Shown: positions 15,810 to 36,642 of the stretch, one piece after another
Layout of the letters: the number at the start of each line of letters is the position of its first letter
Position numbering within the stretch: position 1 is the first letter of the stretch
Program-made: the position numbers and the translations under genes
Notes under the pieces: generated by a model
The model's input: only the letters and a program-made list of their open reading frames with translations
What the model was told of the DNA's origin: nothing
Databases searched by the model: none
Assembly (NCBI GenBank): GCA_964413425.1
Contig: CAYPST010000003.1
Span: 15,336-79,335 of the forward strand
Reading direction: 5' to 3'
Length of the DNA: 64,000 nucleotides
Source of the DNA: an uncultured bacterium
Lineage (GTDB): Bacteria > Fidelibacterota > JAANXI01

Positions 15810-16643
15810 TCAGCTGCCGGAACTAACCGGTTTGCGTCCGATGACCGTGATGCTGTACACACCTTTCTTCTCTGATTGGAACGTTGCGATTTCGTCTTCG
15901 GTTAGAAGCGATTGAAGCGTCCCTTCCGGCAGCGGAATGTACCGGGATTTCGTAATCTCCACAGATTCAAATCCTGTCGAGATAATTGTCTGAAGGTACT
16001 TGGCCTGTCGCATTGCTCCGGCAATGCAGCCGGTATAGAGTTCTATGGAATTCCGTATGATTTCGGGCAGATCCCCTCTGGTAACGATATCTGAAATGCA
16101 AAATCCGCCACCCGGTCGAAGCACCCGAAAGATTTCCGCATACGCTCTTCCTTTATCCGGAACCAGATTTAATACGCAGTTACTGATCACTCTGTCAACT
16201 GAGTTAGGCGCAAGCGGGAGATCCTCGATATCACCTGCCTGGAACTCGACGTTTTGGTAGCCCAATTTTTCGGCATTGTTTCGGGCTTTGGCGACCATGG
16301 CCGGTGTCATGTCAATCCCGATGATCCGGCCGGTTGGCCCCGTCTGAGAGCGCGCCACAAAAGCATCATTGCCTGCGCCTGACCCGAGATCCAGCACAGT
16401 GTCACCTTGCTGTATGCCGGCAGACTCAGTAGGCAGGCCGCATCCTAACCCTAGATCGGCCTCCGCCATATAGCCGGTTGTGGCGGAATAGTCTTCATTC
16501 ATCCGGCTATAGGCTGCAGACTGTTCCCCGGGAGCACAACACGAGGTTTCAGGGGCACAACAGGACGAATTTTCATCTGTTTTGTGGGCAATAGCCGAAT
16601 ACTTTTCACGTACTTTCTCCCTGAGTGATTGATTCTCTGCCAT
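15810..16643 (-). CDS. arsM: arsenite S-adenosylmethionine methyltransferase
   Basis: SAM-MTase motif I VLDLGSGAGND. Conserved ArsM cysteines are present: an N-terminal CC...CC cluster, CVLNL, and GC (LYTGCIAG). 277 aa. Immediately downstream of arsR on the minus strand. Confidence 0.8.
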   Translation of the reverse strand: MAENQSLREKVREKYSAIAHKTDENSSCCAPETSCCAPGEQSAAYSRMNEDYSATTGYMAEADLGLGCGLPTESAGIQQGDTVLDLGSGAGNDAFVARSQTGPTGRIIGIDMTPAMVAKARNNAEKLGYQNVEFQAGDIEDLPLAPNSVDRVISNCVLNLVPDKGRAYAEIFRVLRPGGGFCISDIVTRGDLPEIIRNSIELYTGCIAGAMRQAKYLQTIISTGFESVEITKSRYIPLPEGTLQSLLTEDEIATFQSEKKGVYSITVIGRKPVSSGS

Positions 16644-16649
16644 ATGATG

Positions 16650-16985
16650 TCACTCCTTCCTCATAGCGTTCATTTCTTTGGTGATGCCGGAGAAGAATTC
16701 CTCGAAGGTATGCCTGACAGTATTCAGCACCTCATAATCGACGCAATAGCACGTTCTTGGGCCCTCCAGGGTGCCCTGAATGAGGCCAGCCTCTTTGAGC
16801 ATTTTCAGATGTTGCGAAACGGTAGATTGAGAAAGCGGAAGCGCTTCAACGATATCCCCGCACATACAGGCGTTAGTTTCTGTGAGAAACTGCAGGATAC
16901 GCAAGCGAGCCGGGTGGGACAGCGCTTTCATGTATTCAGCCAGCAGGCCGATATCTTTCCGGAATTCTTTCGCTTTTGACTGCAT
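16650..16985 (-). CDS. arsR: ArsR/SmtB family metalloregulatory transcriptional repressor
   Basis: Winged-HTH [13 protein letters not shown] with the metal-site cysteines just N-terminal of the recognition helix ([12 protein letters not shown]). 111 aa. Its stop abuts the arsM start. Confidence 0.85.
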
Positions 16986-17157: not shown

Positions 17158-17390
17158 ACTACCAGAAATTTCTTGAAGTCATGAATCTTTGCAGACAAGA
17201 CTCCTCAGGGAAACAGGAAAATTCCGGCGGACGTCGTCAGAGCAGAAAAATTTCTCTCCAGTTGAGAAATACTTTCAAGTATGATGGGAATTGTTATATA
17301 TTCAACAACTATCAGAGAAAAATTTGAGTGGGGTAGATTTCTCACTCTGGATACCAGTGTCCAGATATATTTATGGGGAGGAAGTACAGT

Positions 17391-17942
17391 ATGCCGCATA
17401 TTGAAATCAAGAATCCGCTGCCGGGCATTGCCGGACTGCTCCAGGATTTTCCGGAGACCGGTGAACCCATATCTGCATTGACGGAGGTCTTGCTCCGGGG
17501 ACCATCACCGCTGTCTGCCGGGGAGCGCGAATTAATTGCCGCGTATACGTCCTCTAAAAATGATTGCTTTTACTGAACGCAAATCCATGGCGCCATAGCA
17601 GAACACCTGCTGGGCGACAGTTCCGCAGTTGTGGAACAAGTATTAACGGATGTGGACACTGCACAAATTAGTGACAAATTGCGAGCACTTTTACACATTG
17701 CTGCCGGGGTGACCAGGTCGGGTACTGAGGTTTCCGGACAGTTGATCCACCAGGCACGCGAGGCCGGGGCGACGGACCGGGAGATTCACGACACAGTTCT
17801 GGTGGCAGCAGCATTCAATATGTTTAATCGCTATGTTGACGGACTGGGAACGTATGCTCCCACTGATCCGGAAATGTACAAGAAGCGCGGGAAGATCATT
17901 GCGGAGCAGGGATATCTCCGTGGGAAAAATGGTGAATCGTAA
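17391..17942 (+). CDS. AhpD-like / carboxymuconolactone-decarboxylase-family peroxidase-related selenoprotein (in-frame UGA = Sec at 17574-17576)
   Basis: Two ORFs in the same frame (17373-17576 and 17631-17942) are separated only by TGA. Read through, the product is ...ELIAAYTSSKNDCFY-U-TQIHGAIAEHLLGD..., which reproduces the family redox motif E...N.C.YC...H with the resolving Cys replaced by UGA, the signature of the known AhpD-like selenoprotein family. RBS GGGGAGGAAG lies 6 nt before ATG 17391. A 9-bp hairpin starts 13-20 nt after the UGA. Confidence 0.75.
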
Positions 17943-17950
17943 CCAGGAAT

Positions 17951-17983
17951 TTTGAGTCTGTTCAAGAACCACATAGACTCAAA
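17951..17983 (+). terminator. hairpin downstream of the selenoprotein gene (tttgagtct-N15-agactcaaa)
   Basis: A 9-bp perfect stem sits 9 nt after the stop codon. No clear U-tract. The 3' arm resembles the MITE terminus (atagactca). Confidence 0.35.
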
Positions 17984-18003
17984 TAAACACATTCTCTTGA
18001 ATT

Positions 18004-19812
18004 ATGAAGGATTTTTCCGAGAAATATCAACTCCCGATTAAACTTCTGGTGACGCTGTTCTTCGCAGGATTATTGATCGCACCACTAATTATCCAGCGGT
18101 ATGCCGCCTCCGGCACTTTTTCTCCCGGGGAGGATTCCAAAGAATTCGCGCTGCAGCACTTCGGATTCTATCTGGAGGATGTCGCCCTGGCCAGTGGGCT
18201 GGATTTCACGCATCAATCCCCCAGGCTTGATCCGAAGCTGAATCATATCCTTCCGCAGATTGCTTCCATGGGAGCGTCGGTGTCGATTGTGGATTTCAAC
18301 CGGGACGGATGGAATGACATCTATGTTACCAATAGTCGGTATGGGACAAAAAATGCCCTGTACCGCAATGAAGGTGATGGCACCTTCCGGGATGTCGCGG
18401 AGACGGTTGGCGTCGCGAACGTGAATCAGCCGGGCACCGGAGTATCCATGGGAGCCGTATGGGGCGACTACGATAATGACGGGTATGAAGATCTCTTTTT
18501 GTACAAGTGGGGAAAGCCGGAATTGTTTCATAATAATGGCGTGACCGGTTTCACCAGAGTAACGGAGCAGAGTGAATTTCCCGAGTGGGTGAATTCTAAC
18601 ACGGCGATCTGGTTGGATTACAATTCGGATGGCTATCTGGATATCTTCCTGGGCGGATATTATCCTGCAAAATTCGATCTCTGGAATCTGTCCACTACCA
18701 GGATTATGCCGGAAAGTTTTGAGTATGCGCAGAACGGCGGCCGTAACTATTTGTTCGAGAACCAGGGAGACGGCACATTTCGGGATGTCAGTGACCAGGC
18801 AGGATTGACCAGCACCCGCTGGACACTGGCTGCCGGAGCTGCTGACTTTCAGCGGGACGGCTACCCGGGTCTGTTCCTTGCCAACGATTTTGGAGTGGAT
18901 GAATTCTATTCGAATGAAAAGGGGAAACGGTTTCGCGAGGTCGGGATTGAGATGAAAACCGGATTTACACCGAAAAGCGGGATGAACGTGGCGTTTGGAG
19001 ATATCGCCAATCAGGGATTGTTTTCGATTTATGTAACCAATATCACCGAGGAAGGGGTTCTGATGCAGGGTAATAACCTGTGGATGCCCCGACAGAGCCG
19101 CGATAGGATTACGTACACCAATCTTGCGCGACAGATGGGAGTGGAGTTGGGAGGATGGAGTTACGGGGCGCAATTCGGTGATCTGAACAACGACGGGGCA
19201 GTGGATTTATATGTGGCGAACGGTTTTATCTCCGCACGGAAGGGGACCAGTTACTGGTACGATTATTCCAAGGTAACGGGGGGCAATTCGGCGATCATTT
19301 CCGATGCCCGTAACTGGCCTGACATGCGCGGACGAAGCCAGTCCGGATATCAGCGCAACCGGATCTGGCTGAATGATGGTGCCGGGCGGTTTCAGGAAGT
19401 TGCGGGATATGTAGGCGGAAATGATATCTTCGACAGCAGGGCAGTTGCGCTTGTCGATCTCTGGAACCGGGGAGTACTGGATGTGGTGGTCGCCAATCAG
19501 AATGACCGGTTGCTGGTATACAAAAATGAGGTGCTTCCCGGGAATAACTGGATTGGTTTTCAGCTGGAAGGCACCCGAAGCAACCGGAGTGCCGTTGGCG
19601 CTGCTGTTACCCTGCACTGGGACGGAAAGACGCAATCGCAGATTGTATCCGGAGGTATCGGGTATTGCTCGCAGAACCAGCGCCGGGTTCAGTTTGGACT
19701 GGGGAGCAGCGAGAGTGTCGAAAAAGCTGTTATTCACTGGCCTTCCGGGATCCGACAACAAGTTGAACTTCCCGAGGTTCGAAAAATGCATACGGTGCGA
19801 GAACCGGAATGA
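18004..19812 (+). CDS. CRTAC1-family protein: FG-GAP/VCBS-like repeats plus C-terminal ASPIC/UnbV domain, N-terminal membrane anchor
   Basis: Repeated D.N.DG..D.. calcium-binding-loop motifs (FNRDGWNDIYV, YDNDGYEDLFL, YNSDGYLDIFL, LNNDGAVDLYVANGF). C-terminal UnbV_ASPIC-type sequence (GGIGYCSQNQRRVQFGLG...HWPSG). One N-terminal TM helix. Confidence 0.8.
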   Translation: MKDFSEKYQLPIKLLVTLFFAGLLIAPLIIQRYAASGTFSPGEDSKEFALQHFGFYLEDVALASGLDFTHQSPRLDPKLNHILPQIASMGASVSIVDFNRDGWNDIYVTNSRYGTKNALYRNEGDGTFRDVAETVGVANVNQPGTGVSMGAVWGDYDNDGYEDLFLYKWGKPELFHNNGVTGFTRVTEQSEFPEWVNSNTAIWLDYNSDGYLDIFLGGYYPAKFDLWNLSTTRIMPESFEYAQNGGRNYLFENQGDGTFRDVSDQAGLTSTRWTLAAGAADFQRDGYPGLFLANDFGVDEFYSNEKGKRFREVGIEMKTGFTPKSGMNVAFGDIANQGLFSIYVTNITEEGVLMQGNNLWMPRQSRDRITYTNLARQMGVELGGWSYGAQFGDLNNDGAVDLYVANGFISARKGTSYWYDYSKVTGGNSAIISDARNWPDMRGRSQSGYQRNRIWLNDGAGRFQEVAGYVGGNDIFDSRAVALVDLWNRGVLDVVVANQNDRLLVYKNEVLPGNNWIGFQLEGTRSNRSAVGAAVTLHWDGKTQSQIVSGGIGYCSQNQRRVQFGLGSSESVEKAVIHWPSGIRQQVELPEVRKMHTVREPE

Positions 19813-20651
19813 GTTCCACGGAAACGTCAGTATCTCAGACGAATTCGACCACCACGGAAGCGACATTTTTTTCCTGGTTGAAACGGCTGGATTTCAGGTA
19901 TGCCCCTCCCCTTTTTATCACTTTAATTCTGCTGGTTGGTCATTGGTCCTTCGGAATACTGGAAAGCCATAAAACTGTGGTTCTGGCCGTCGCTGCCAGT
20001 ATGCTGACCGACCTGGCACTCGCCAGGTTGATGTGGGGCAAATGGCGTAATCTTTCCAGTGCCTATATCTCCGGAATCAGTGTGAGCATCCTGATCAGGT
20101 CGCCGATGTATTGGCCGTATGTCTTGTGCGCGATGATCTCCATAGCCACCAAATACGTGCTGAGATATCGGGGGCGGCATCTCTGGAATCCATCCAATTT
20201 CGGGGTGTCCTGGATGCTGTTCACCGCTCCCTTCAGCGTGGCGGGTCTGAGCATCCAATGGGGAAATAATCTGTGGCCCATGCTGATTATCTGGCTCCTG
20301 GGATGTGTTATCGTGTGGCGAGCCCGCCGGTTTCATGTCACTTTCACCTATGTGGTCGGCTTTATCGCATTTTCCTTGCTTCGCAGTGTGATTACCGGCG
20401 CGTCGTTTTTAGCGGAAGTTGCACCACTCACCGGGCCGATGTACCAGCTGTTTGTCCTGTTTATGATTACTGATCCGGTCACCACGGTGAGTTCCCGAAA
20501 GGGTCGCATTCTGGTTGCATTCCTCATTGCACTGGTCGAGTTCGTACTGCGATTGAATGAATTCATCTACGCGCCATTTTATGCGCTCTTCCTGGTGGGG
20601 CCTGCGGCCATGATGATTGACCTGTGGCGGACAAAGTCTGCCGGAGCCTGA
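19809..20651 (+). CDS. polytopic integral membrane protein (about 8 TM), possible UnbU-like partner of the ASPIC/UnbV protein
   Basis: Hydrophobic profile. Start ATGA overlaps the stop of the CRTAC1 gene, implying translational coupling. UnbV/UnbU-type gene pairing is a recurrent neighbourhood, but I cannot confirm family membership from sequence alone. Confidence 0.45.
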   Translation: MSSTETSVSQTNSTTTEATFFSWLKRLDFRYAPPLFITLILLVGHWSFGILESHKTVVLAVAASMLTDLALARLMWGKWRNLSSAYISGISVSILIRSPMYWPYVLCAMISIATKYVLRYRGRHLWNPSNFGVSWMLFTAPFSVAGLSIQWGNNLWPMLIIWLLGCVIVWRARRFHVTFTYVVGFIAFSLLRSVITGASFLAEVAPLTGPMYQLFVLFMITDPVTTVSSRKGRILVAFLIALVEFVLRLNEFIYAPFYALFLVGPAAMMIDLWRTKSAGA

Positions 20652-20789
20652 TGCATACTATAACCAATCCGGGAGCCTGAATCAGTCGGGACAGATTTTC
20701 CTCCCTTCCGTCGGATACGGCTTTCTTTCCATCCGAGATGTTTCCATATTATTGCTGGTGAGTAGATCATCAATCAGGGGGAGAATCAG

Positions 20790-21458
20790 ATGCCGGAGCC
20801 ACATCTTCGACCATACGAAGAATACCGGGAATATCCGGTGGAGACCATGCGTGATCGTGCCCGGGCGTTCTGCGAAGATCTCCGCAGGCGCCGGTCGGTC
20901 CGGGAGTTCTCGGATCGCCCGGTTCCGCCCGAGATTATCGAGGACTGTCTGCGTGCGGCGGTGAGTGCGCCCAGCGGAGCGAATATGCAGCCATGGCATT
21001 TTGTGGTTGTTCGAAATCCAGCAGTAAAACACGAGATTCGTCTTGCCGCGGAAGAGGAGGAGCGGAAGTTCTATGGGCAGCGCGCACCGGATGAGTGGCT
21101 GAATGCCCTCTCGCCTCTGGGTACGGATCCGGAGAAACCATTTCTGGATACGGCGCCATGCCTCATTGCCGTCTTTGCGGAATCGTATGGGATCAGTGCC
21201 GGTGGAGCACATGTGAAGCATTACTATGTGAAGGAATCAGTGGGGATTGCCACTGGAATGCTTATTACCGCCATACATCATGCGGGATTGGTGTGTTTGA
21301 CGCACACTCCGAGTCCCATGGGATTTTTAAATACGATTCTGAACCGTCCGGAAAATGAAAAACCGTTTCTTCTATTGGTGGTGGGCTATCCGGCTGATGA
21401 TGCTGAGGTCCCTGGTATCGTGAAGAAGCCATTTGACGAAATGGTAACCTTTCAATAA
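20790..21458 (+). CDS. nitroreductase-superfamily flavoprotein, iodotyrosine-deiodinase-like subgroup
   Basis: [39 protein letters not shown] is the FMN-binding nitroreductase/IYD-type N-terminal signature. 222 aa. Confidence 0.65.
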
Positions 21459-23730: not shown

Positions 23731-25029
23731 ATGAAGTTGCAACAGTACACCACTCGTCGCGAATTTTTAAAGGATACGGTACGAGCTGCATTCGGTCTGT
23801 CTCTTGTCCCCTCACTTCTCACCAAACGGGCCGGTGCCAGTCAACCATCCCTGGCAGCGAATGACCGGATTACTCTGGGCTTTATCGGGACCGGAGGACA
23901 GGGGACACACAATATGCGCGCATTCTTAAATAACCCGGAGGCGCAGGTGGTGGCGGTATGCGATGTGGATCGCAGCCATCGGGACCGCGCCAAACGGATT
24001 GTGGATGACCACTATGGCTCTGATGACTGTGATTCCTACAACGATTTTCGGGAGTTGAATGCCCGGAATGATATCGATGGTGTGGTGGTTGGTACCCCCG
24101 ACCACTGGCATACCATCCCGGCATTGGATGCCGCCAGACAGGGGAAGGATATCTATCTCGAAAAACCTCTGACGCTCACCATTGATGAAGGAATTAAATT
24201 ACGGGAGGTCATTCATCGCTATGAGCGTATTTTGCAGACTGGCAGCCAGCAGCGGTCCGACCGGGATTTTCGCTTTGCGTGCGAGTTAGTGCGCAACGGA
24301 TATATCGGCGAGGTTCAGAAAGTGGAGGTGGTGATTCCGGGGAACAATCGGACGACCGGTCCCACCTGGGAACCGATGCCAGTGCCGGCCGGATTTGATT
24401 ACGACTTCTGGCTGGGCCCCGCTCCCTGGAAACCCTATACCGAGCAGCGTTGCCACTATCAATTCCGGTTTATCCTGGATTACTCCGGTGGTCAGGTTAC
24501 CAACTGGGGCGCTCACTTTCTGGATATTGCACAATGGGGGTTAGGCATGGATGACTCCGGACCTGTGGAGGTGTTTGGTGATGGGGAGTTTCCCGAAACA
24601 GGATTGTTCACCACAGCCACCCAGGTGGATTTTACGTGCATTTATGAGAACGGAGTGGAGATGACCTGTAAAACAGGTGGTACCGGTACCAAATTTATTG
24701 GCACGGAAGGGTCGGTTTTTGTGAGCAGAAGCAGGCTGGAGACCGAACCGGCTTCCTTGTTGGAAACCCGCATCAAGCCGGATGAGTTGCACTTATACGA
24801 AAGTAATGACCATCACCAGAACTTTCTGGACTCGATGCGTTCCCGCAGGAATCCGATTGCTGATGTCGAAATCGGTCATCGGTCTGCCACTATCTGTCAC
24901 CTCGGAAATATTGCCATGCTCACAAAGCGGCGCCACAGATGGGATCCGGCCGCGGAGAAGTTTATCGGCGATGATGCGGCGAATCGGATGACCGGACGAC
25001 CCTCCCGTGGTTCCTGGAGGATTGATTGA
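23731..25029 (+). CDS. Tat-exported Gfo/Idh/MocA-family oxidoreductase (GH109-like / glycoside-3-dehydrogenase-like), paralog 1
   Basis: Tat motif TRREFLKD. Rossmann GFIGTGGQGTHN, VVAVCDVD, PDHWH, LEKPL. 432 aa. Confidence 0.8.
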   Translation: MKLQQYTTRREFLKDTVRAAFGLSLVPSLLTKRAGASQPSLAANDRITLGFIGTGGQGTHNMRAFLNNPEAQVVAVCDVDRSHRDRAKRIVDDHYGSDDCDSYNDFRELNARNDIDGVVVGTPDHWHTIPALDAARQGKDIYLEKPLTLTIDEGIKLREVIHRYERILQTGSQQRSDRDFRFACELVRNGYIGEVQKVEVVIPGNNRTTGPTWEPMPVPAGFDYDFWLGPAPWKPYTEQRCHYQFRFILDYSGGQVTNWGAHFLDIAQWGLGMDDSGPVEVFGDGEFPETGLFTTATQVDFTCIYENGVEMTCKTGGTGTKFIGTEGSVFVSRSRLETEPASLLETRIKPDELHLYESNDHHQNFLDSMRSRRNPIADVEIGHRSATICHLGNIAMLTKRRHRWDPAAEKFIGDDAANRMTGRPSRGSWRID

Positions 25030-25402
25030 GGAGCGCAAAACGGCATTCATAGGGAGTGTAAGGTATATCCTGAAGAGAGAAATATAATTAATCGTTTGGA
25101 ATTCGTTGCAGAACCTGATAATATAGCAGAAACCGGTCACGAATCCATTATAACGAAGGAGCAGGAAGTTAACAATCGGGCAGCCGACGGGGATTTCCGA
25201 AGCAACCGGATGCCTCAGTCGTCTGGAATTATGGAAGTATCTGCCGGTTGGTGCGGGCAGGCGCGGCTTTGGCTCCAGAGGGGCCGGATGTTTCTAGAAA
25301 GCGGACATTCAAAATCCCCTCCGCTTCAGCCTGCCCGGCTGCCGACGGGCGGAGCGGAACATTCAACTGAGTGAAGTTCATAGTCATATATAGAAATATG
25401 GA

Positions 25403-26737
25403 GTGAGTGGAATGTCGAATGAAACGCAGATATCTCGCCGCCAGTTTCTTCGAACCGCCGTTGGTCTGACCGTCGGGGCCGCAGTTGCTCCGGTGGTCGT
25501 ACCCTCCTCGCTGGTTGGCAAGTCGGCCCAGGTTCCGCCCAGCGATCAGGTGGTGATGGGCTGCATCGGCGTGGGCTGGCAGGGCACCAGTAACATGGAG
25601 AGTTTCCTCAGAGAAGCAGATGTGCGGATCGTGGCGGTGTGCGATGTGGACGAGCATCATCTCCGGAACGCCAGGCAGATCGTCGATGAGCATTACGGCA
25701 ACACTGATTGTGCTGTCTACCATGATTTCCGGGACGTACTCGCGCGAGCGGACATTGATGCCGTGTCGCTGGGCTTGCCGGACCACTGGCATGCGGTCCC
25801 GGCGATTCAGGCGGCGGAGCAGGGCAAAGACATCTATGGGGAAAAGCCGGTCTCTCATACGCTCAGGGAGGGCCGGGCCATAGTGGAGGCGGTGGAACGA
25901 TACGGCCGGATCTGGCAGACCGGCAGCTGGCAGCGCTCGGAGTCGCAGTTTCGGGTTGCCGCCGAACTGGTGCGGAACGGCTACATTGGGAAAGTACACA
26001 CCGTGGAGGTCGGGTTACCGGCCGGCCACACCGATTTTGCCGGTACCAAAGGACAGGATGACATCCAGCCGCCACCCCCGGAACTGGAGTATGATTTCTG
26101 GCTGGGGCCGGCCCCCTATTCCCCGTACATTAAATCCCGGGTGCATAAGAATTGGCGCTGGTACTATGATTTCGGCGGCGGGCAATTGATGGATTGGGTC
26201 GGCCACCACGTGGATATTGCGCATTGGGGGCTGGGCACAGAATACACCGGGCCGGTGGAAATCAAGGGCACCGGTGAATTCCCCGGGGACGGGGTCTGGG
26301 ACACCGCCACCCGGTATCGGGTGGACACGGTGTATCCGAACGGCGTGCAATTGATTATGGCGGGCGGCCATGAGGAGGTCTGTTTCGGCAGAATGGGCAC
26401 CAAATGGATTGGCGAGGACGGCTGGGTCTGGGTGGACCGGAGCGGTATCGATGCGGAGCCCAAGCGTCTCCTGCAGGAAACCATCAGAGCGGACGCAATT
26501 CAGCTCTATCGCTCCCCCGGACACTGGCGGAATTTCATCGACTGTGTGAAATCCCGGCAGCAGACCATCACCCCGTGCGAAGTGGCGCATCGATCGGCTT
26601 CGCCTGGTCATCTGGGATTGATATCTATGTTGTTAGGACGCAAAATCCGGTTCAATCCGGAGACGGAAGAAATCCCGGACGATCCGACTGCCGCCAGGAT
26701 GCTGGGTAAATCCATGCGGAGCCCGTGGGCGGTATGA
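25403..26737 (+). CDS. Tat-exported Gfo/Idh/MocA-family oxidoreductase, paralog 2
   Basis: Tat motif SRRQFLRTAVG. GCIGVGWQGTSN, IVAVCDVD, PDHWH, GEKPV. 444 aa. Confidence 0.8.
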   Translation: MSGMSNETQISRRQFLRTAVGLTVGAAVAPVVVPSSLVGKSAQVPPSDQVVMGCIGVGWQGTSNMESFLREADVRIVAVCDVDEHHLRNARQIVDEHYGNTDCAVYHDFRDVLARADIDAVSLGLPDHWHAVPAIQAAEQGKDIYGEKPVSHTLREGRAIVEAVERYGRIWQTGSWQRSESQFRVAAELVRNGYIGKVHTVEVGLPAGHTDFAGTKGQDDIQPPPPELEYDFWLGPAPYSPYIKSRVHKNWRWYYDFGGGQLMDWVGHHVDIAHWGLGTEYTGPVEIKGTGEFPGDGVWDTATRYRVDTVYPNGVQLIMAGGHEEVCFGRMGTKWIGEDGWVWVDRSGIDAEPKRLLQETIRADAIQLYRSPGHWRNFIDCVKSRQQTITPCEVAHRSASPGHLGLISMLLGRKIRFNPETEEIPDDPTAARMLGKSMRSPWAV

Positions 26738-26963
26738 GCGGTGTGCCGGGGAATTGCCGAAAACAGAGTTTGTCACAGAATTGTCGATGGGGTATGATTA
26801 GAATACAGATAAGGACAATTCAGTGATATACTCCGTTGGGGAGCAGTTGCTATCCATATCCGATTCAAAAAAGCGAACGTTGCCTCAGATAATATAAGCT
26901 GTCAATGAGCAATAAAATGAGTAAGAGAGAAGTGTCAGATTTGGCATCAGGAAAGTGTAAGAT

Positions 26964-28259
26964 ATGAGCCATCTTCGAATGAGTCGACGGGAATTTTTAT
27001 CCGGCACGCTCACCCTCCTCGGTGGCACCCTTGCCGTGCCTGCTCTAATACCACATTCTGTATTCGCAGCAGCTCCCGGCGATCAGATCACCATGGGATT
27101 TATTGGGACGGGAAAACAGGGCACCTATTTGCTCCGGGCGTTTCTTAACGAAACGGGAACCCGGGTACTCGCTGTCTGCGACGCGGATCGACTGAAACTT
27201 GAACGCGCGCAGCGGGTGACGAATGAATACTACGCCCGGGAACAGACCACTGGCAGCTATCAAGGCTGTGATATGTATCCGGATTTTCGGGAGCTCCTGG
27301 GACGGGAGGACATCGATACGGTGGTGATCGCCACGCCGGATCACTGGCATGCTGTCGCGGTCGACGAATCGGCCTGCGCAGGCAAAGATATCTACTGCGA
27401 AAAACCGCTTTCCCAGACCATCGAAGAGGGGAAATCCATGGTCCGGGCAGTACGTCGGTACGGGCGTATATTTCAGACCGGCAGCATGCAGCGTTCCTAT
27501 CAGCAGTTCCGGTTTGCCTGTGAATTAGTGCGGAACGGCTATATCGGAGATATCCGGCATGTCACGGTCGACGTGGGCGGCCCGCCCGAACTGTGTACAT
27601 TGCCTCCTGAACCGGTTCCGGAGTATCTGGATTGGGACATGTGGCTTGGCCCGGCACTCCGCAGACCCTATAATTCGGATCTGTCTCCGCACATCAGCAA
27701 CGATATCTTTCCGCACTGGCGCAGCTATCGTGCGTTCGGTGGTGGCGGGATGACCGACTGGGGCGCGCATCATTTCGATATCGCCCAATGGGCCCTGGGG
27801 ATGGATCACAGCGGACCTGCAGAGATCCATCCGCCGGATGAAAGGGGCTATGATGTGCTGACATACAGATATGCCAATGGCATAACCATGAGCCGCAACA
27901 CCTTCGAAGAAGGACATGGCGTCCTCTTTGAGGGCAGTGATGGGAAAATTGTAGTGAACCGCAGCTATATCCAAACCTGGCCGGAAAAATTGGCAGAAGC
28001 GAAGATAAAGCCGAATGAAGTCCACCTGTACAGAAGCAATAATCATTACGCCGATTTTCTGCAAGCTGTCCGGGGTCGAAGTAAACCTATTTGCGATATC
28101 GAGATCGGCTACCGGTCCGTATCTGTCTGCCACCTCGGGAATATCGCGTATGAACTGAAGCGGCCGTTGCAGTGGGATCCTGCACAGGAAAACTTCGTGA
28201 ACGATCCGGATGCCCATCGGCTGCTCAGCCGGGCCTATCGTAATCCGTGGAAGTTATAA
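26964..28259 (+). CDS. Tat-exported Gfo/Idh/MocA-family oxidoreductase, paralog 3
   Basis: Tat motif SRREFLSGT. GFIGTGKQGT, VLAVCDAD, PDHWH, CEKPL. 431 aa. Confidence 0.8.
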   Translation: MSHLRMSRREFLSGTLTLLGGTLAVPALIPHSVFAAAPGDQITMGFIGTGKQGTYLLRAFLNETGTRVLAVCDADRLKLERAQRVTNEYYAREQTTGSYQGCDMYPDFRELLGREDIDTVVIATPDHWHAVAVDESACAGKDIYCEKPLSQTIEEGKSMVRAVRRYGRIFQTGSMQRSYQQFRFACELVRNGYIGDIRHVTVDVGGPPELCTLPPEPVPEYLDWDMWLGPALRRPYNSDLSPHISNDIFPHWRSYRAFGGGGMTDWGAHHFDIAQWALGMDHSGPAEIHPPDERGYDVLTYRYANGITMSRNTFEEGHGVLFEGSDGKIVVNRSYIQTWPEKLAEAKIKPNEVHLYRSNNHYADFLQAVRGRSKPICDIEIGYRSVSVCHLGNIAYELKRPLQWDPAQENFVNDPDAHRLLSRAYRNPWKL

Positions 28260-28289
28260 CATAATTGAGAGAAGAGAAGAAGAATCATC

Positions 28290-29645
28290 ATGACCAGACG
28301 TGAGTTTCTCCGGCGATCCGCCGGAATATTCATTGCGGCAGTGAGTGCACCGGCAGTAGTGCCGTCAACGATCTTTGGAAAGGCCGGGCAGATCCCCCCA
28401 AGTGAACGGATTGTCATGGGGTGTATCGGTGTTGGGGGCCAGGGCACCTATAACACCAGAGCGTTTCTCAATATCCCGGATGTCCAGGTGGTGGCGGTTT
28501 GTGATGTCGAGCGGGAAAGTGATCTCTATTACGGAGACACCGTTGCAGGCAGAGAGCCGGCCAGACGACTTGTGAATGCGTTTTATTCCAGGAATCGGGG
28601 AGCAGTCAATTACCAGGGGTGCGAGGTGTATACTGATTTTCGGGAGCTGCTGGCCCGGGATGACATTGATGCAGTTACCGTGTGCACTCCTGATCACTGG
28701 CACGGGTTGATTTCAGTCGCGGCGGCGGAAGCCGGTAAGGATATCTACTGCGAGAAACCTCTGACAAACACCATTGCCGAAGGTCGGGCGGTTGTGGATG
28801 CAGCCCGGAAATACGGCCGGATTCTGCAGACCGGCAGCCATGAACGCTCCAATGATAGCGTGCGGTATGCCTGCGAACTGGTTCGGAACGGATACATGGG
28901 CGAACTGCAGCGAATCCGGGTAAATATGCCCAACAGCGATCCCCACCACGACCTGATTCGCCAATCGGACCAGCCGCAGCCGGAAATGCCAATCCCGGAC
29001 GGATTCGATTATAATATGTGGCTGGGGCATACCCCCTGGAAACCTTACACGGAAAAGCGCTGCCATTTCTGGTGGCGGTTCATCCTGGATTACGGCGGTG
29101 GAGAAATGACGGACAGAGGTGCACATATTATCGATCTGGCACAGCTGGGCAACAACACCGACCATACCGGTCCGGTCCGCTTGCGAGCGAGGGGCAGTGC
29201 CCCGGATACCGGGCTTTATGATACGTTCCTCTCGTATGAGTTTGAATGTCAGTATGACAATGGTATTACCCTCCTTGGCAGCAGTCAGCAGCCGAGAGGG
29301 CTGAAATTCGAAGGGACCGACGGCTGGATATTTATCCACATCCACGGTGGACGACTGGAAGCCGAGCCAGCCTCCCTGCTGACGACACAGATCGGTCCCG
29401 GAGAAGTCCACCTGGGGCGCAGTCCCGGACATCATGAAAATTTTATCAATTCGGTAAAAATTAGGAAGCAGCCCGTGGCTCCGGCCGAAGTCGGGCATCA
29501 TACCGCAACCATCTGTCATCTTTTGAATATAGCCATGTTAACCGGTACTGAAGTGCACTGGGATCCCGAAAACGAGCAGATAACAAATAGTCCGGAAGCC
29601 AATAAAATGCTCTCCCGACCCATGCGGAGTCCATGGCATTTGTGA
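28290..29645 (+). CDS. Tat-exported Gfo/Idh/MocA-family oxidoreductase, paralog 4
   Basis: Tat motif MTRREFLRRSAG. GCIGVGGQGT, VVAVCDVE, PDHWH, CEKPL. 451 aa. Confidence 0.8.
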   Translation: MTRREFLRRSAGIFIAAVSAPAVVPSTIFGKAGQIPPSERIVMGCIGVGGQGTYNTRAFLNIPDVQVVAVCDVERESDLYYGDTVAGREPARRLVNAFYSRNRGAVNYQGCEVYTDFRELLARDDIDAVTVCTPDHWHGLISVAAAEAGKDIYCEKPLTNTIAEGRAVVDAARKYGRILQTGSHERSNDSVRYACELVRNGYMGELQRIRVNMPNSDPHHDLIRQSDQPQPEMPIPDGFDYNMWLGHTPWKPYTEKRCHFWWRFILDYGGGEMTDRGAHIIDLAQLGNNTDHTGPVRLRARGSAPDTGLYDTFLSYEFECQYDNGITLLGSSQQPRGLKFEGTDGWIFIHIHGGRLEAEPASLLTTQIGPGEVHLGRSPGHHENFINSVKIRKQPVAPAEVGHHTATICHLLNIAMLTGTEVHWDPENEQITNSPEANKMLSRPMRSPWHL

Positions 29646-29717
29646 GGTATTCGGATAAATGCACCACAAGGTAATCTGTAATTTCGTAAACACAACAAGC
29701 AAGAAAGGATAGGGGTT

Positions 29718-31112
29718 ATGACTGATAAGAATCAATCTCCTTCCAAAGGAAAGCAAGACATGTCCCGTCGGCAGTTTTTAGGGGCATCGGCACTGGCCGC
29801 AGCCGGATTAACGGTTGCGCCTCGACACATACTCGGGGGCGCAGGATACCAGGCTCCCAGTGATACACTGAACATCGCCTGCATCGGTGTGGGTGGCATG
29901 GGAAGAAACAATACCCGGGAACTGGCGGAATTGGGCGAAAATATCTATGCCCTCTGTGATGTGGATTTCGATTATGCCAGCGGGGTATTCGAGCAGTATC
30001 CCCGGGCGAAGAAGTACACGGATTTCCGGAAGATGTTAGAGAATGAACCGGAAATTGATGCCGTGATGGTGGCGACACCGGATAATACCCATGCTGCTAT
30101 CGCCATTACCGCCATGAAAAGGGGGAAGCACGCATTTGTTCAGAAACCACTGACTCGCACAATTTACGAGGCGCGTCGTTTGGCTGAGGTGGCGAAGGAA
30201 GAAGGCGTGGCCACCCAGATGGGGAATCAGGGGCATGGTATGGAAGGTACCTACCTGATACTGGAATGGATTCGCCAGGGAGCCATAGGGGACGTCACCA
30301 AAGTAGATACCTGGACCAACCGTCCCAGAGGATACTGGCCCCAGGGAGCTGACGTCCGTCGGCCGGCAGAAATTCCGGCGGTCCCCTCCACGCTGTCCTG
30401 GGATCTCTGGATCGGGCCGTCTCCGTATAGACCCTATCATCCCGCGTATCATCCCTTTGCATGGCGCGGATGGTGGGATTTCGGTTCCGGAGCACTGGGC
30501 GATATGGGCGCGCATATCATGGATCAGCCATACTGGGCGTTAGAACTCGGTATGCCTGAAACGGTCTATGCCAGTAACACACCGTATAACGATCAGTCCT
30601 TCCCGCTGGGATCCGTAGTTCACTATCAATTCCCGGCAAGAGGGAATAAGCCGCCGGTGAAGTTCACCTGGTACGATGGCGGATTACTGCCCCCGCGTCC
30701 CGACGATCTGGAACAGGGTCGTCAAATGGGCGCCAGCGGCGGCGGCATGATCTTCTATGGGACCGAAGGGAAACTGATGGCCAGCGTCTACGGAAACAAT
30801 CCCCGGCTGATTCCGGAATCGTTCATGCGCGAAGTGGGCCCGCCGAAGAAAACCCTGGAACGCTCACCTGGTATCCATGAGGAATGGGTGAACGAAGCCA
30901 AGGGGGGACCCAAAGCCAAGTCCAACTTCGAATATGCCGCTGCATTGACGGAAACGATGCTGCTGGGTAATGTGGCGATTCAATTCAGCGACACCAATAA
31001 ACGACTGGAATGGGATGCCGAAAATATGCAGGTCGCCAATCATCCGGAAGCAAACGAGTGGTTAGCGCAGGTCCACGATTTTCGTCCTGGCTGGGATGAG
31101 TTGATCGGATAA
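29718..31112 (+). CDS. Tat-exported Gfo/Idh/MocA-family oxidoreductase, paralog 5 (most GH109-like)
   Basis: Tat motif SRRQFLGASALAAAG. ACIGVGGMGRNN, YALCDVD, PDNTHA, VQKPLT. 464 aa. Confidence 0.8.
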   Translation: MTDKNQSPSKGKQDMSRRQFLGASALAAAGLTVAPRHILGGAGYQAPSDTLNIACIGVGGMGRNNTRELAELGENIYALCDVDFDYASGVFEQYPRAKKYTDFRKMLENEPEIDAVMVATPDNTHAAIAITAMKRGKHAFVQKPLTRTIYEARRLAEVAKEEGVATQMGNQGHGMEGTYLILEWIRQGAIGDVTKVDTWTNRPRGYWPQGADVRRPAEIPAVPSTLSWDLWIGPSPYRPYHPAYHPFAWRGWWDFGSGALGDMGAHIMDQPYWALELGMPETVYASNTPYNDQSFPLGSVVHYQFPARGNKPPVKFTWYDGGLLPPRPDDLEQGRQMGASGGGMIFYGTEGKLMASVYGNNPRLIPESFMREVGPPKKTLERSPGIHEEWVNEAKGGPKAKSNFEYAAALTETMLLGNVAIQFSDTNKRLEWDAENMQVANHPEANEWLAQVHDFRPGWDELIG

Positions 31113-31226: not shown

Positions 31227-32123
31227 ATGTTGAAAAACGGTATCGGAGTACCCGTGCTGATTCTCCTCTTCCTTACAGCGGTGATGATCGCCAGCTGTAG
31301 GAAGAAGCAGGAAGTTAGTTCGGTACCCTATAATCCGCAAACCGATGTATACAAAGGATGGCGGCTTGGCTGCCAGGCCTACTCATTCAACCGGTTTACC
31401 TTCTATGAAGCGGTGGATAAAACCGCGTCAGTGGGATTGGGATGGATTGAAGCATATCCCGGGCAGACACTGAGTCAGGAGCATCCGGACGTGCAATTCG
31501 GACCGGAGATGTCACCGGACATCCGGGCGGAAGTCAAACAGAAGCTGGCTGATGCCGGAATACAGCTGGTGAACTATGGAGTTACCCAGCTGCCCAATGA
31601 CGAGGCCGAATGCCGGACAGTGTTCGATTTCGCCGAAGATATGGGTATCGAGACCATCGTCTCCGAGCCCCCGGAAGAAGCCTTCGATCTGATCGATCGA
31701 TTGGCTCAGGAATACCAGATCAATGTCGCGATTCACAATCATCCGAGGCCGTCCCATTACTGGAATCCGGAAACAGTTCTGCGGGTGGTGGAAGGCCGGA
31801 GCAAGTATCTTGGTGCCTGCGCCGATACCGGCCACTGGATGCGGTCGGGTATCAATCCGCTGGAAGCCCTGCAGATGCTGGAAGGACGTATCATCTCTCT
31901 GCACTTCAAAGATCTGAACGAATTCGGAGTCCGGGAGGCCCATGACGTGCCCTGGGGCACCGGACAAGCAAATGTTGAAGCACTGCTCAAAGAGCTGGAT
32001 CGCCAGAACTTCCGGGGCGTCTTTTCTATTGAGTACGAACATAACTGGGAAAATTCGGTCCCGGACATCCAAAAATGTGTGGAGTATTTTAATGAAGTGG
32101 CGGGTGAATTAAGTGAGGTATAA
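31227..32123 (+). CDS. sugar phosphate isomerase/epimerase (xylose-isomerase-like TIM barrel) with lipoprotein-type signal peptide
   Basis: Signal peptide ending MIASC. Metal-binding TIM-barrel motifs typical of the AP endonuclease 2 / xylose-isomerase-like fold (IETIVSEP, AIHNHP, CADTGHW, LHFKD, IEYEHNWE). Confidence 0.75.
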   Translation: MLKNGIGVPVLILLFLTAVMIASCRKKQEVSSVPYNPQTDVYKGWRLGCQAYSFNRFTFYEAVDKTASVGLGWIEAYPGQTLSQEHPDVQFGPEMSPDIRAEVKQKLADAGIQLVNYGVTQLPNDEAECRTVFDFAEDMGIETIVSEPPEEAFDLIDRLAQEYQINVAIHNHPRPSHYWNPETVLRVVEGRSKYLGACADTGHWMRSGINPLEALQMLEGRIISLHFKDLNEFGVREAHDVPWGTGQANVEALLKELDRQNFRGVFSIEYEHNWENSVPDIQKCVEYFNEVAGELSEV

Positions 32124-32136
32124 AACAAGACCCAAA

Positions 32137-32166
32137 TTGAGCGATTTATTTCCATAAATCGCTCAA
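32137..32166 (+). terminator. strong hairpin (13-bp perfect stem ttgagcgatttat / ataaatcgctcaa, loop ttcc) just after the stop of 31227-32123
   Basis: Perfect inverted repeat 14 nt downstream of the stop. No U-tract follows, so it is either a U-less terminator or a structural repeat. Confidence 0.4.
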
Positions 32167-32237
32167 TCGACAAAGAAAATGTAAGTTTTCACCTCACCCA
32201 TTCGGTGAAAACAAACATTTTCTCAGTCGGGGTTATA

Positions 32238-32283
32238 CCTAAGTACAGCGATACTTCGCTGCACTCGTATCGCTCAACTTAGG
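32238..32283. repeat. imperfect-palindrome repeat element (family B), copy 1: cctaagtacagcgatacttcgctg / cactcgtatcgctcaacttagg
   Basis: The reverse complement is identical over both 22-nt arms to 46532-46599, where a 22-nt insert separates the arms. The arms are imperfect inverted repeats of each other (REP-like). Confidence 0.55.
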
Positions 32284-32332
32284 CAAGAATTATTTTCATG
32301 TATAGGGATGTTTGAATATTATCCCAGTAGTT

Positions 32333-32369
32333 AAAAAAAGGGGGGCTATATCGAGCCTCCCTTTTCTCT
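32333..32369. terminator. bidirectional intrinsic terminator (A7-GGGGGGC-loop-GCCUCCC-UUUUCUCUG)
   Basis: A-tract, 7-bp GC stem (one G.U pair), 8-nt loop and a U-rich tail. It lies about 210 nt from the nearest annotated gene end. Confidence 0.5.
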
Positions 32370-32534
32370 GCTGATAGAGGAGTTTATTAGGAAATTGGAA
32401 AACAGTTTTTGGGCAGTAAAATCAGGAACCTTAACACAGGTTGTTCAGTAAGGAATTGGACTTTCAACTGATATCTGCAGATACTCAGCAGATAAGTGAG
32501 TAGCATTAGCGATGGGAAGACATGTATATTTCTT

Positions 32535-32692
32535 GAGTCTATTTAAGAAAACGCTTCGCCCCGAAGGGATGCCTTCGGCAAAGAGGTCCCGTGACAACGG
32601 GACAAAGAAACTAGAACATATCCCTTGCCAAACCCTCGCAATACATGTTGAAGATGTGTTCTCTATAGAATAAAAATATATGGCTATTCAGC
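32535..32692. mobile_element. MITE-like element, copy 3 (reverse orientation, one end degenerate)
   Basis: gagtctatttaagaaaacgcttcgccccgaagggatgccttcggcaaagaggtcccgtgacaacgggacaaag... matches the reverse complement of 46886 back to about 46700, with point differences and without copy 2's internal duplication. The far TIR (ttctaaacactc) is not recognisable. Confidence 0.45.
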
Positions 32693-33389
32693 TTACTCAG
32701 TATTTGTGGAGATCAAGAGTTCCTGGAGACGCTCTGACCGAATGACCCCCTCTGGCTCCCCCTTAGTAAGGGGGAGAACGAGGAAAATGGGGTCAGGCCC
32801 GAAGGGCCCCCTATGGGGCAGCATTGAGGTAGGTGTTCATCTCCTGAGCCAAGTTAATAGTCATATTCATTAAAACTGAATTATCGAGGTAAATAACAGG
32901 AGTAAGTCATAATAGAACTAGTAGTTAGATTAATTAAAAAGGATTCTCTTAAGATAACTTCAGTACAGGATCGAGAAACTCCCGGGGAGTGTTCCTATGA
33001 AGCGTTAAGGAGTGAGTCTAGCCAGAGTGCTCAGCAGGCCGGATGTATCCACAAAGCCCTGATGCGCTGATTTTGGCCCCCAGGGGCTAGATATTTCTAG
33101 CAATGAGTCCCTCTCCCCCCTTCCGCGCCGGAGGAGCAGTACTGAGTTAAGCTGATAGTAAAATATGCATAATTAATATGATTAATCAGGAAAAAACATT
33201 GCTTTCATTAACAAACTACGTTATACTTATAGCAACATATGTATTTGACATCGCTTAGAACCTGACCCATAGATAAGAACTGTTTACTTTTGTTGTTCAT
33301 GTCGGTTTACTTTAAGCTTGGTTAGCAGAGGATAGGAAGCAGTATTTTGAGGCACTGTAATAAGGGGTTAAGAGAAAAGATATGGCGAT

Positions 33390-33425
33390 GCACACGTTTG
33401 CGAATACGTTTTCGCAAACGTGTGC
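33390..33425. promoter_or_regulatory. 36-bp near-perfect palindrome GCACACGTTTGCGAATAC|GTTTTCGCAAACGTGTGC (candidate operator or stable hairpin)
   Basis: 35 of 36 positions are self-complementary. It lies about 170 nt upstream of the TonB-dependent receptor start at 33598. Confidence 0.45.
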
Positions 33426-33597
33426 AAATGGCATCATCGTTAATATAATTTGTTTAAGGAATCGCAGATCGTTTCTGGGCAAGGCAGCATAATTAAAAGG
33501 CGTTTCGAAGGCTCTTCACTAGGTGGCTGATATGTCTGAATTTTTATTAAAGAATTGAATCACCATTAATATAATATAAACAGAAAGGAGAATTACC

Positions 33598-36500: not shown

Positions 36501-36642
36501 GGATGCAGGATATACTGCGGGGAGTGACGAGCCGGGGGATCTCAGCAGCGAAGATAAACCCTATATTAACGATCCGAACCGCCGGTTCCTCTACTATACA
36601 GATCCACGGTATGTGACATTCGGATTACGAGTGAATTTCTAG
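33598..36642 (+). CDS. TonB-dependent outer-membrane receptor with N-terminal carboxypeptidase-regulatory-like domain (SusC/RagA-like architecture)
   Basis: Signal peptide, then a CarbopepD_reg-like domain (GKIAGTVTDAETGEPLPGVNVILEG...GFYTI), a plug region, a long beta-barrel and a C-terminal aromatic residue (...GLRVNF). 1014 aa. RBS AAAGGAG. Confidence 0.85.
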   Translation: MQRTLPWDSLITGILVCLLIPFTILFGQTSGKIAGTVTDAETGEPLPGVNVILEGTQQGAATDQEGFYTILNVTPGSYSVTASMIGYQEVTKTGVEVTIDHTSTIDFELQTAAIAGEAITVEAEREVVKLDMSSSSVSTTPDEIEGTPTVTNVGEMINLQAGIDGMSVRGGSADETAFMLDGLMVVDNRASEPLSNLVNLSAVQSLEVIKGGFNAEYGNVRSGVITVVTKDGRPERYSGSLELRYSPPRLKHSGPSVFNWQNYYLRPYLDPDVRMDGTKSGAWDEEMRGQYPEFEGWKAVSDRTLADDSDANDQTPEEAMQWFMWQHRAEGSAELGQKEANYGKIPDYLADVSLGGPVPFASSYLGDLTFFLSHKSDNSAFALPVVRDYYHENNTQLKLTTRPTDNLRVTAQGIYGIINSVASHVRGAAWSMNDYLRSGDDFYNPDTESHSLYWPGGWNPFDAYRSVGGLNIEHTLSSRTFYEANISYTHTQNDMDGPQKIRDTTPIRYFGSVPADEQPYGWIWATGEPGRKRKTIDGFGIADEGAEPRDTSYASTVNASFDITSQVHRNHMVKGGIVFNYDEFHVFRGSHRPRSSTEDTKIIWHQYPIRLGAYIQDKFEFEGMIANIGVRLDYNDPKTEWYTVDQYSKYFTAKYEDQLTTEAPTEPAEAHLRISPRVGISHPVSANSKFYFNYGHFYSMVPAQQMFEINYGNVPSGVQFIGNPSADPARTVAYELGAEYSLLNQFLLHASGYYKNVTGEAASVGYTDFTGSVDYNTIENNEYSDVRGFEFKIEKRYGWITGWLNYDYRVRTQGYVGRQHYFEDIRQMRTYGLQNPYQERPLARPVARAQLRFRSPQDFGPSYGGFRPLGGWSLSFLYTHQAGHYETWDPLTTYELQDNIQWADYNRVDAKISYDVLGSSSRSIRLYLDITNVFDIKNLTTMAFSDANDRRAYLESLHLPMYEGKKYQDAGYTAGSDEPGDLSSEDKPYINDPNRRFLYYTDPRYVTFGLRVNF

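Follow-up and report, generated by a model that had tools for sequence, protein, structure and literature searches.

Does the single in-frame TGA at positions 17574-17576 of this DNA terminate translation, or is it read through as selenocysteine (Sec) within one intact enzyme? In the window, by which is meant the whole 64-kb stretch of DNA that was analysed, this TGA is flanked by open segments on both sides. Such an arrangement, taken alone, is uninformative, as ORFs split by one TGA are frequent by chance: 32 such pairs are present in the window when all frames are counted. The split considered here is nevertheless set apart from random ones because homology spans the stop, with residues 25-154 of the read-through protein aligning to a single family model (TIGR01926) and the UGA falling on an invariant cysteine (Cys) column. 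The reading developed below is that 17391-17942 very probably represents one gene for a 183-residue AhpD-like thiol/selenol oxidoreductase, in which UGA62 would be decoded as Sec via a downstream SECIS.

Gene limits and reading frame

The two ORFs share one frame and are separated only by this TGA, as an earlier note on this DNA had stated, and translation across the stop reproduces exactly the read-through sequence given there, ...ELIAAYTSSKNDCFY*TQIHGAIAEH..., in which the asterisk marks the UGA. The read-through peptide of the region 17373-17942 is ...AAYTSSKNDCFY*TQIHGAIAEH.... The beginning of the gene, on the other hand, requires correction. While it had been placed at ATG 17373, the true start is ATG 17391 (MPHIEIK), located 18 nt further downstream, since the N-terminus M-[PA]-[HY]-[IV] is common to all homologs and orthologs, a GGAGG sequence is suitably placed ahead of this codon, and the ortholog designated L001 carries an in-frame TAG just 5' of the equivalent ATG. 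The stop codon is TAA, at 17940-17942. The resulting gene is delimited as follows:

17377-17381, + strand: Shine-Dalgarno-like GGAGG, read from the sequence, 9 nt 5' of the start codon.
17391-17942, + strand: complete CDS of the predicted AhpD-like selenoprotein, 183 codons plus TAA, with the putative Sec at codon 62; supported by HMMs, a collinear alignment with 23 homologs and an AlphaFold model.

Gene calls by JGI, ENA, NCBI and Logan split every ortholog of this gene into pieces of 61 aa and 99-118 aa, and the fragments of Sec genes that gene callers produce yield either no domain hits or weak ones. Reading the UGA as Sec would replace two annotated fragments, of 61 and roughly 100 residues, with one intact redox enzyme. 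These same public gene calls are what favors the view that the locus comprises two small genes, one encoding a peptide of 61 residues terminated by the TGA and the other a 103-residue protein initiated at GTG 17631. Such an organization is highly improbable, as the split would cut through the active-site motif of a protein that folds as a single domain, and homologs are single proteins of 180-190 residues. Furthermore, conservation at the protein level extends over the 18 codons that separate the TGA from the GTG, the catalytic His included, and GTG 17631 is not only devoid of a Shine-Dalgarno sequence but is located inside H2, one of two RNA hairpins described below.

Family, fold and active site

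With residue 62 substituted by Cys, the protein scores 96.1 bits against TIGR01926 ('peroxidase-related enzyme'; cutoff 81.8 bits), with residues 25-154 aligned to model positions 44-173 of 178 and the N-terminus of the model uncovered, and 48.4 bits against the Pfam CMD model PF02627 (cutoff 23). Sequence matches in the PDB, with E-values of 1e-16 to 1e-13, are 2pfx, 3c1l, 2prr and 2oyo, all of which are structural-genomics 'peroxidase-related' proteins with an AhpD core. An AlphaFold2 model derived from 24 sequences (pLDDT 91.6, pTM 0.89) is all-helical, and its top Foldseek matches are the same four entries together with 6k40 (TM 0.69-0.75, probability 1.00; TM 0.74 to 2pfx). Within this model the C-F-Y-U motif is located in the loop just ahead of helix 64-86. 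From the model and the profile scores, the gene product is confidently predicted to be a small AhpD-like enzyme with an all-alpha AhpD-like fold, belonging to TIGR01926/COG2128 and the CMD family, and the original assignment of the locus to the AhpD-like/CMD family stands.

More than 8000 homologs were obtained in a protein search, and the best 120 of these are full-length (176-226 residues) and share 54-61% identity with the window protein. An alignment of the window protein with 23 full-length Cys homologs (A1) is collinear from end to end, in agreement with the claim that neither half of the gene is damaged and that both are collinear with other family members. The UGA column of this alignment is an invariant Cys, found in 23/23 homologs and corresponding to the second Cys of C59-x-x-C62-x3-H66, which is where the earlier note had placed it in proposing that the UGA occupies the second Cys position of a CxxC motif. 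Upstream of the redox motif, R46 and E47 are likewise invariant. The codons of the active site are:

17529-17531, + strand: Glu47 codon, equivalent of the proton-relay Glu (PA0269 Glu36, Mtb AhpD Glu118); invariant in A1.
17565-17567, + strand: Cys59 codon TGC, which opens the C-F-Y-U redox motif; invariant in A1 and in the seven Sec lineages.
17574-17576, + strand: UGA codon 62, the presumed Sec codon, on the invariant second Cys; also TGA in L001/L010, L005, L006/L007, L131, L133 and L134.
17586-17588, + strand: His66 codon, four residues after the presumed Sec, equivalent of Mtb AhpD His137; invariant in A1 and in all Sec lineages.

The proton relay of Pseudomonas aeruginosa PA0269 is composed of Glu36, Cys48, Tyr50, Cys51 and His55, and that of Mycobacterium tuberculosis AhpD of Glu118, Cys130, His132, Cys133 and His137 (PMC3141380). 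In the window gene the set is complete, consisting of E47, C59, Y61, codon 62 and H66, with UGA in place of the second Cys, and the distance of 12 residues between Glu47 and the first Cys is the same as in PA0269. The window protein thus shares with M. tuberculosis AhpD (1knc/1gu9) and PA0269 (2o4d/2ijc) both the all-helical AhpD fold and the Glu/Cys/x/Cys/His set, and differs from them in that Sec would replace the second Cys. The relationship to M. tuberculosis AhpD is a distant one (TM about 0.5-0.57, 11-14% identity), and no ahpC gene is adjacent to the Sec gene in the window.

Conservation of the UGA codon

A scan of reference genomes revealed an ortholog in the MAG 'bacterium SMAG_U9204' (L001) that is 84% identical to the window protein, has TGA at the same codon, and is followed by the same downstream neighbor. 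When the post-UGA fragment was used as query, many 'proteins' of 99-122 residues were matched, and the DNA of these fragment matches led to further TGA orthologs, namely L005, L006/L007, L010, L131, L133 and L134, of which L010 is the same sequence as L001. TGA is therefore present at codon 62 in seven lineages (the window and six others) that display 58-90% pairwise amino-acid identity and are mostly syntenic; the most divergent of these Sec lineages is L131, with the motif N-N-C-Y-Y-U-M. Over the 121 codons 3' of the TGA, the window and L001 differ by 44 synonymous vs. 20 nonsynonymous changes, and 55/76 nucleotide differences in this part are at third positions. Since the changes are mostly synonymous, the downstream part is translated in the read-through frame.

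These data bear directly on the possibility that the gene is dead, i.e., that a TGC or TGT codon for Cys has mutated to TGA. A single base change would suffice for such an event, and decay within the family does occur, as exemplified by a frameshifted Cys form (L008/L009). It is very hard, however, to reconcile a pseudogene with the occurrence of the same TGA in seven lineages down to 58% identity, with the strong preponderance of synonymous changes in the part that follows this codon, or with the preservation of His66 and of the whole C-terminal domain, collinear with the family; moreover, a spread of 58-90% rules out that the orthologs are copies of one recent pseudogene. The preference for a Sec codon over a pseudogene that had been expressed from the window alone is borne out by the TGA in seven lineages, by the purifying selection downstream of it, and by the conserved stem-loops described below. 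The chance that the stop is a sequencing or assembly error is negligible, as assemblies made independently from no fewer than seven different samples or sources contain the identical TGA. Lastly, TGA is the commonest ordinary stop codon in the window, where it ends 26/43 genes, and genome-wide reassignment of UGA (codes 4 and 25) is therefore ruled out in favor of site-specific recoding.

Three additional sequences were considered as Sec forms. P0185/L132 was rejected, as it carries an upstream TAG in a different context, and the short 'fragments' L008/L009 were rejected as a frameshifted Cys form (CFFC). P0178, judged from its protein sequence, looks like another Sec form. The CFFC homolog (L008 9762-10309 and L009 2670-3217) is called as overlapping products of 96 and 102 residues owing to the frameshift, and it adjoins three CMD-family paralogs and an MFS transporter. 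Be it a genuine pseudogene or an assembly error, this frameshifted gene is a contrast case to the Sec forms.

RNA structure downstream of the UGA

Folding of the window RNA reveals two adjacent hairpins directly 3' of the UGA:

17591-17616, + strand: hairpin H1, the candidate SECIS by position, with a CGCC/GGCG lower stem, an internal loop, a GCAG/CUGC upper stem and an AACAC loop.
17620-17637, + strand: hairpin H2, a second SECIS candidate or accessory element, GUUCCGC-AGUU-GUGGAAC, with the AGUU loop from 50 nt after the UGA.

The apical loop of H1 starts 25 nt after the UGA, and the H1 fold is stable (z -2.7, energy about -16 kcal/mol). An independent RNAalifold prediction from the seven lineages yields the same two hairpins. 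All of the core pairs of H1 (8/8) are kept in 7/7 lineages, the changes found at three core pairs (four cells) all preserving pairing via G-U wobble, while the H2 core of 5-6 bp and its AGUU loop are invariant in the seven lineages, even at four-fold degenerate sites. In H2, one G-U pair has changed to A-U, coincident with an Ala-to-Thr substitution. Compensatory double changes were found at no base pair of the seven-lineage alignment, and support for the RNA structure consequently consists of conservation, wobble-preserving changes and synonymous constraint, as opposed to covariation. With regard to the last of these, 5/10 amino-acid-invariant degenerate codons among codons +1 to +21 are identical across the seven lineages, compared to 3/68 elsewhere (Fisher p = 5.6e-4). 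The same 70 nt in four Cys-form homologs have no excess stability (z = +0.4, +0.9, +1.1 and -0.8), and the Cys forms satisfy only 7-10/15 of the pairs, whereas the Sec forms satisfy 14-15/15 with z down to -3.4.

The consensus for bacterial SECIS elements calls for a loop of 3-9 nt, an upper stem of 4-16 bp, a G in the first two loop positions, a spacing of 16-37 nt from the UGA, and an energy that does not exceed -7.5 kcal/mol (PMC13188914). Compared with this consensus (Zhang and Gladyshev, PMC13188914), H1 fits with respect to its 25-nt spacing, 5-nt loop, upper stem of 4-6 bp and energy, but its AACAC loop in the window has no G, and A stands for G in L005 as well. The position in question is a synonymous GAA/GAG site, and G is found in the first two loop positions in 5/7 lineages. 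In H2, conversely, the AGUU loop is canonical, whereas its distance of 50 nt from the UGA exceeds the range of 16-37 nt. H1 is also placed just where other CFYUT genes have their canonical SECIS hairpins, which are found at 24-25 nt or 17 nt and have loops such as CGUGC, CGGGAA, GGUCU and GUU. As judged by position, we lean toward H1 as the SelB-binding hairpin, in which case H2 would be an accessory element or co-determinant.

A less probable arrangement, to which we would assign perhaps a modest minority share of belief, is that this clade uses a non-canonical two-hairpin SECIS, in which SelB would bind the AGUU loop of H2 and H1 would form a compact side branch. Such a side branch would shorten the path from the UGA to H2 to about 24 nt (14 + 3 + 7), an effective distance equal to the spacing of canonical SECIS elements in related genes. 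If true, this arrangement would represent a class missed by the current consensus model of a single hairpin at 16-37 nt, and would explain why the loop G of H1 varies while the degenerate sites in H2 are frozen. Returning to H1 as the favored SECIS, the two frozen hairpins, neither of which fully fits the consensus in the window, provide a useful test case for SECIS predictors, and the two-hairpin post-UGA structure is the sole feature of this locus that goes beyond the routine.

Identity of the residue at codon 62

The comparisons above speak to read-through of the UGA and not to the residue inserted, and one may envision that the codon is read site-specifically with a residue other than Sec, such as Cys, delivered by a variant of Sec-like tRNA and SelB, or a near-cognate Trp or Cys whose insertion would be favored by the RNA structure 3' of the codon. 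The lack of Sec machinery within the 64-kb window and of a canonical loop G in the H1 of the window could be taken in the same sense. Still, we consider this unlikely. The codon occupies the site of a redox Cys, CxxU members of this family have been documented by the hundreds, a plain TGY codon would be expected in the orthologs if the product contained Cys, and a hairpin is found exactly where related Sec genes have a canonical SECIS. Judged by these sequence comparisons, UGA62 is almost certainly read as selenocysteine; both the actual insertion of Sec and the identity of the hairpin bound by SelB are matters that we infer from them. The gene would mark this uncultured bacterium and its relatives as selenium users.

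Searches with ARAGORN, Rfam and Pfam covering all 43 genes of the 64-kb window detected no selA, selB, selD or tRNA-Sec, which the earlier note predicts to be encoded elsewhere in this genome; the window contains no tRNA at all according to ARAGORN and no Rfam match. Nor does the window contain a second selenoprotein gene among its in-frame TGA codons with open flanks, every one of which was listed. The only plausible other candidate, an in-frame TGA at 25027, was rejected as an ordinary stop followed by non-coding-looking sequence.

Relationship to known AhpD-like selenoproteins

AhpD-like selenoproteins have been known as a family since 2005. AhpD-like (COG2128/YciW) proteins with a CxxU motif were first reported as a new selenoprotein family in Sargasso Sea data, where 27 sequences were found (PMC1088965), and with 299 genes 'AhpD-like 1' took fourth place in abundance among the selenoprotein families of GOS (PMC2398784). 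Most recently, a 2026 review lists both an 'AhpD-like protein, TIGR01926, CxxU' and an 'AhpD-related protein, NF041238, CxxU' (PMC13188914). The premise of the earlier note that AhpD-like proteins are an established bacterial selenoprotein family is thus well documented (PMC1088965, PMC2398784, PMC13188914).

A metagenome scan with a DNA pattern encoding N-D-C-F-Y-UGA-T gave at least 120 matches, and about 100 of the 120 matches listed are read-through genes of the CMD family with coding sequence intact on both sides of the UGA. The short CFYUT forms among these metagenomic genes are core members of TIGR01926, scoring 124-160 bits over the full model, while the long forms belong to NF041238 (342 bits for L044). 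The window gene has in common with the AhpD-like CxxU family a TIGR01926 score above cutoff, CxxU followed by x3-H, the local sequence N-D-C-F-Y-U-T, and a stem-loop whose apical loop is located some 25 nt 3' of the UGA. It differs from the core Sec forms in several respects. Firstly, members of the window clade score 85-105 bits and cover model positions of about 40-173, as compared to 124-160 bits over the full model. Secondly, they are devoid of about 20-40 N-terminal residues. Thirdly, they possess two conserved post-UGA hairpins, with a non-canonical loop in H1. The closest relatives of the clade, among the best 120 of more than 8000 homologs, are Cys forms with 55-61% identity, and in an NJ tree, which is indicative only, the seven Sec lineages form one clade that is sister to Cys forms and apart from the core Sec forms. 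By these sequence criteria the window clade is a peripheral branch of the TIGR01926 family.

Membership in NF041238 ('AhpD_rel_CFYUT', the Sargasso Sea 'hypothetical protein 1') was considered as well, as proteins of this family share with the window protein the C-F-Y-U-T motif and a CMD-type C-terminal domain. NF041238 proteins are, however, about 350 residues long (a 357-residue architecture) and have a long N-terminal extension, in comparison to the 183 residues of the window protein. Membership is ruled out by a score of 46.6 bits against a cutoff of 175, obtained over model positions 218-346 only, whereas L044 is a true member by its score. Taken as a whole, the call made for this locus is correct and of an ordinary kind: the gene is a new member of a well-known selenoprotein family, within one of its peripheral subclades. 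What it adds is an extension of the AhpD-like CxxU family into a peripheral, mostly Cys-containing branch with conserved neighbors.

As a side observation, the approximately 100 CFYUT genes among the matches listed (L011-L130) fall into discrete SECIS spacing classes, with loops mostly at 24-25 nt. One short-form subgroup among these matches has its loops at 17 nt, formed by GGC, GGA or GUU triloops, and within the same set the spacing class tracks the protein subfamily.

Proposed mechanism

In selenoenzymes, Sec is normally found at the attacking position. According to the mechanism proposed here, the ribosome would hold the UGA in its A site while a bacterial SECIS, formed by H1 and possibly also by H2, recruits SelB-GTP-Sec-tRNA(Sec), such that Sec would be inserted in place of termination. 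The resulting Sec62 would be situated at the N-terminal end of a helix within the motif C59-F-Y-U62-x3-H66, with Glu47 completing an AhpD-type proton relay. The chemistry and the physiological substrate that we infer for the enzyme derive from its better known relatives. The disulfide with Cys61 of AhpC is formed in M. tuberculosis AhpD by Cys133, which is the second Cys, while Cys130 is partly buried (PMC6626918). By analogy with Cys133, the selenolate of Sec62 would be the attacking nucleophile, directed at an oxidized partner that may be a peroxiredoxin sulfenate or disulfide, or else a hydroperoxide. Cys59 would then resolve the adduct, giving rise to an intramolecular selenenylsulfide that would be re-reduced by a cellular reductant.

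Sec62 is thus probably located at the attacking and not the resolving position, an assignment made by analogy only because in Burkholderia thailandensis AhpD it is the first Cys that matters more (PMC6626918). The description of the UGA as standing at the 'resolving-cysteine position', as given in the earlier note, is probably reversed, seeing that the second Cys of the M. tuberculosis enzyme is the one that attacks AhpC (PMC6626918).

Gene neighborhood

The order of genes across 17391-21458 of the window is conserved in L001, L005, L006 and L134, among lineages that share only about 62-66% identity. Downstream of the AhpD-like gene the order is:

18004-19812: FG-GAP/UnbV_ASPIC protein, next after the AhpD-like (Sec) gene.
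19809-20651: RnfD-like membrane protein, with a 4-nt overlap with the FG-GAP/UnbV_ASPIC gene.
20790-21458: nitroreductase, after the RnfD-like gene.

Conservation of this order suggests that the AhpD-like (Sec), FG-GAP/UnbV_ASPIC, RnfD-like and nitroreductase genes constitute a putative functional unit. On the other side of the Sec gene, two genes are divergent from it:

16650-16985, - strand: ArsR-family regulator.
15810-16643, - strand: SAM methyltransferase with a Cys-rich N-terminus.

By its sequence, the methyltransferase looks like an arsenite methyltransferase. Selenoproteins in which an arsenite methyltransferase is fused to an AhpD domain are known (PMC13188914), and because such fusions are listed, the adjacency of the ArsR/methyltransferase pair to the Sec gene may have functional meaning. 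At the syntenic loci L005 and L006 this pair is missing.

The intergenic region that separates arsR from the AhpD-like gene contains, 26 nt 5' of the start of the latter, an inverted repeat with 8-bp arms (TCTGGATACCAGTGTCCAGA, 17346-17365). The repeat was flagged by a terminator scan, though no + strand gene is located upstream of it, and it could be a candidate operator site.

At the L005 locus, a sulfatase gene also contains an in-frame TGA (19345-19347), within G-Y-*-T-G-F-V-G-K-F-G and in the context TAT TGA ACC. This TGA does not correspond to a Cys or to a redox position, and the 2026 review of selenoproteins makes no mention of sulfatases (PMC13188914); a nonsense mutation or an assembly error is the probable explanation.

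Other features of the window

Beyond the conserved gene cluster, positions 23731-31112 encode five tandem paralogs of the GFO/IDH/MocA oxidoreductase family, each about 430-465 residues in length, and behind them a TIM-barrel protein resembling xylose isomerase. Next, a low-GC stretch of 1.4 kb (32123-33598; about 0.42 vs. about 0.50 elsewhere), in which there is no ORF of more than 56 residues and no Rfam match, is located 5' of a SusC-like gene. This gene stands at the head of a large fucose-utilization locus that occupies 33598-62252:

33598-36642: SusC-like TonB-dependent receptor, in the fucose-utilization locus.

The locus further encodes a PorP/SprF-like protein, nine paralogous GH29 alpha-L-fucosidases, L-fucose isomerase, an FGGY kinase, a GH95 enzyme, an MFS transporter and LacI/DeoR regulators, a complement that suggests an FCB-group-like polysaccharide degrader.
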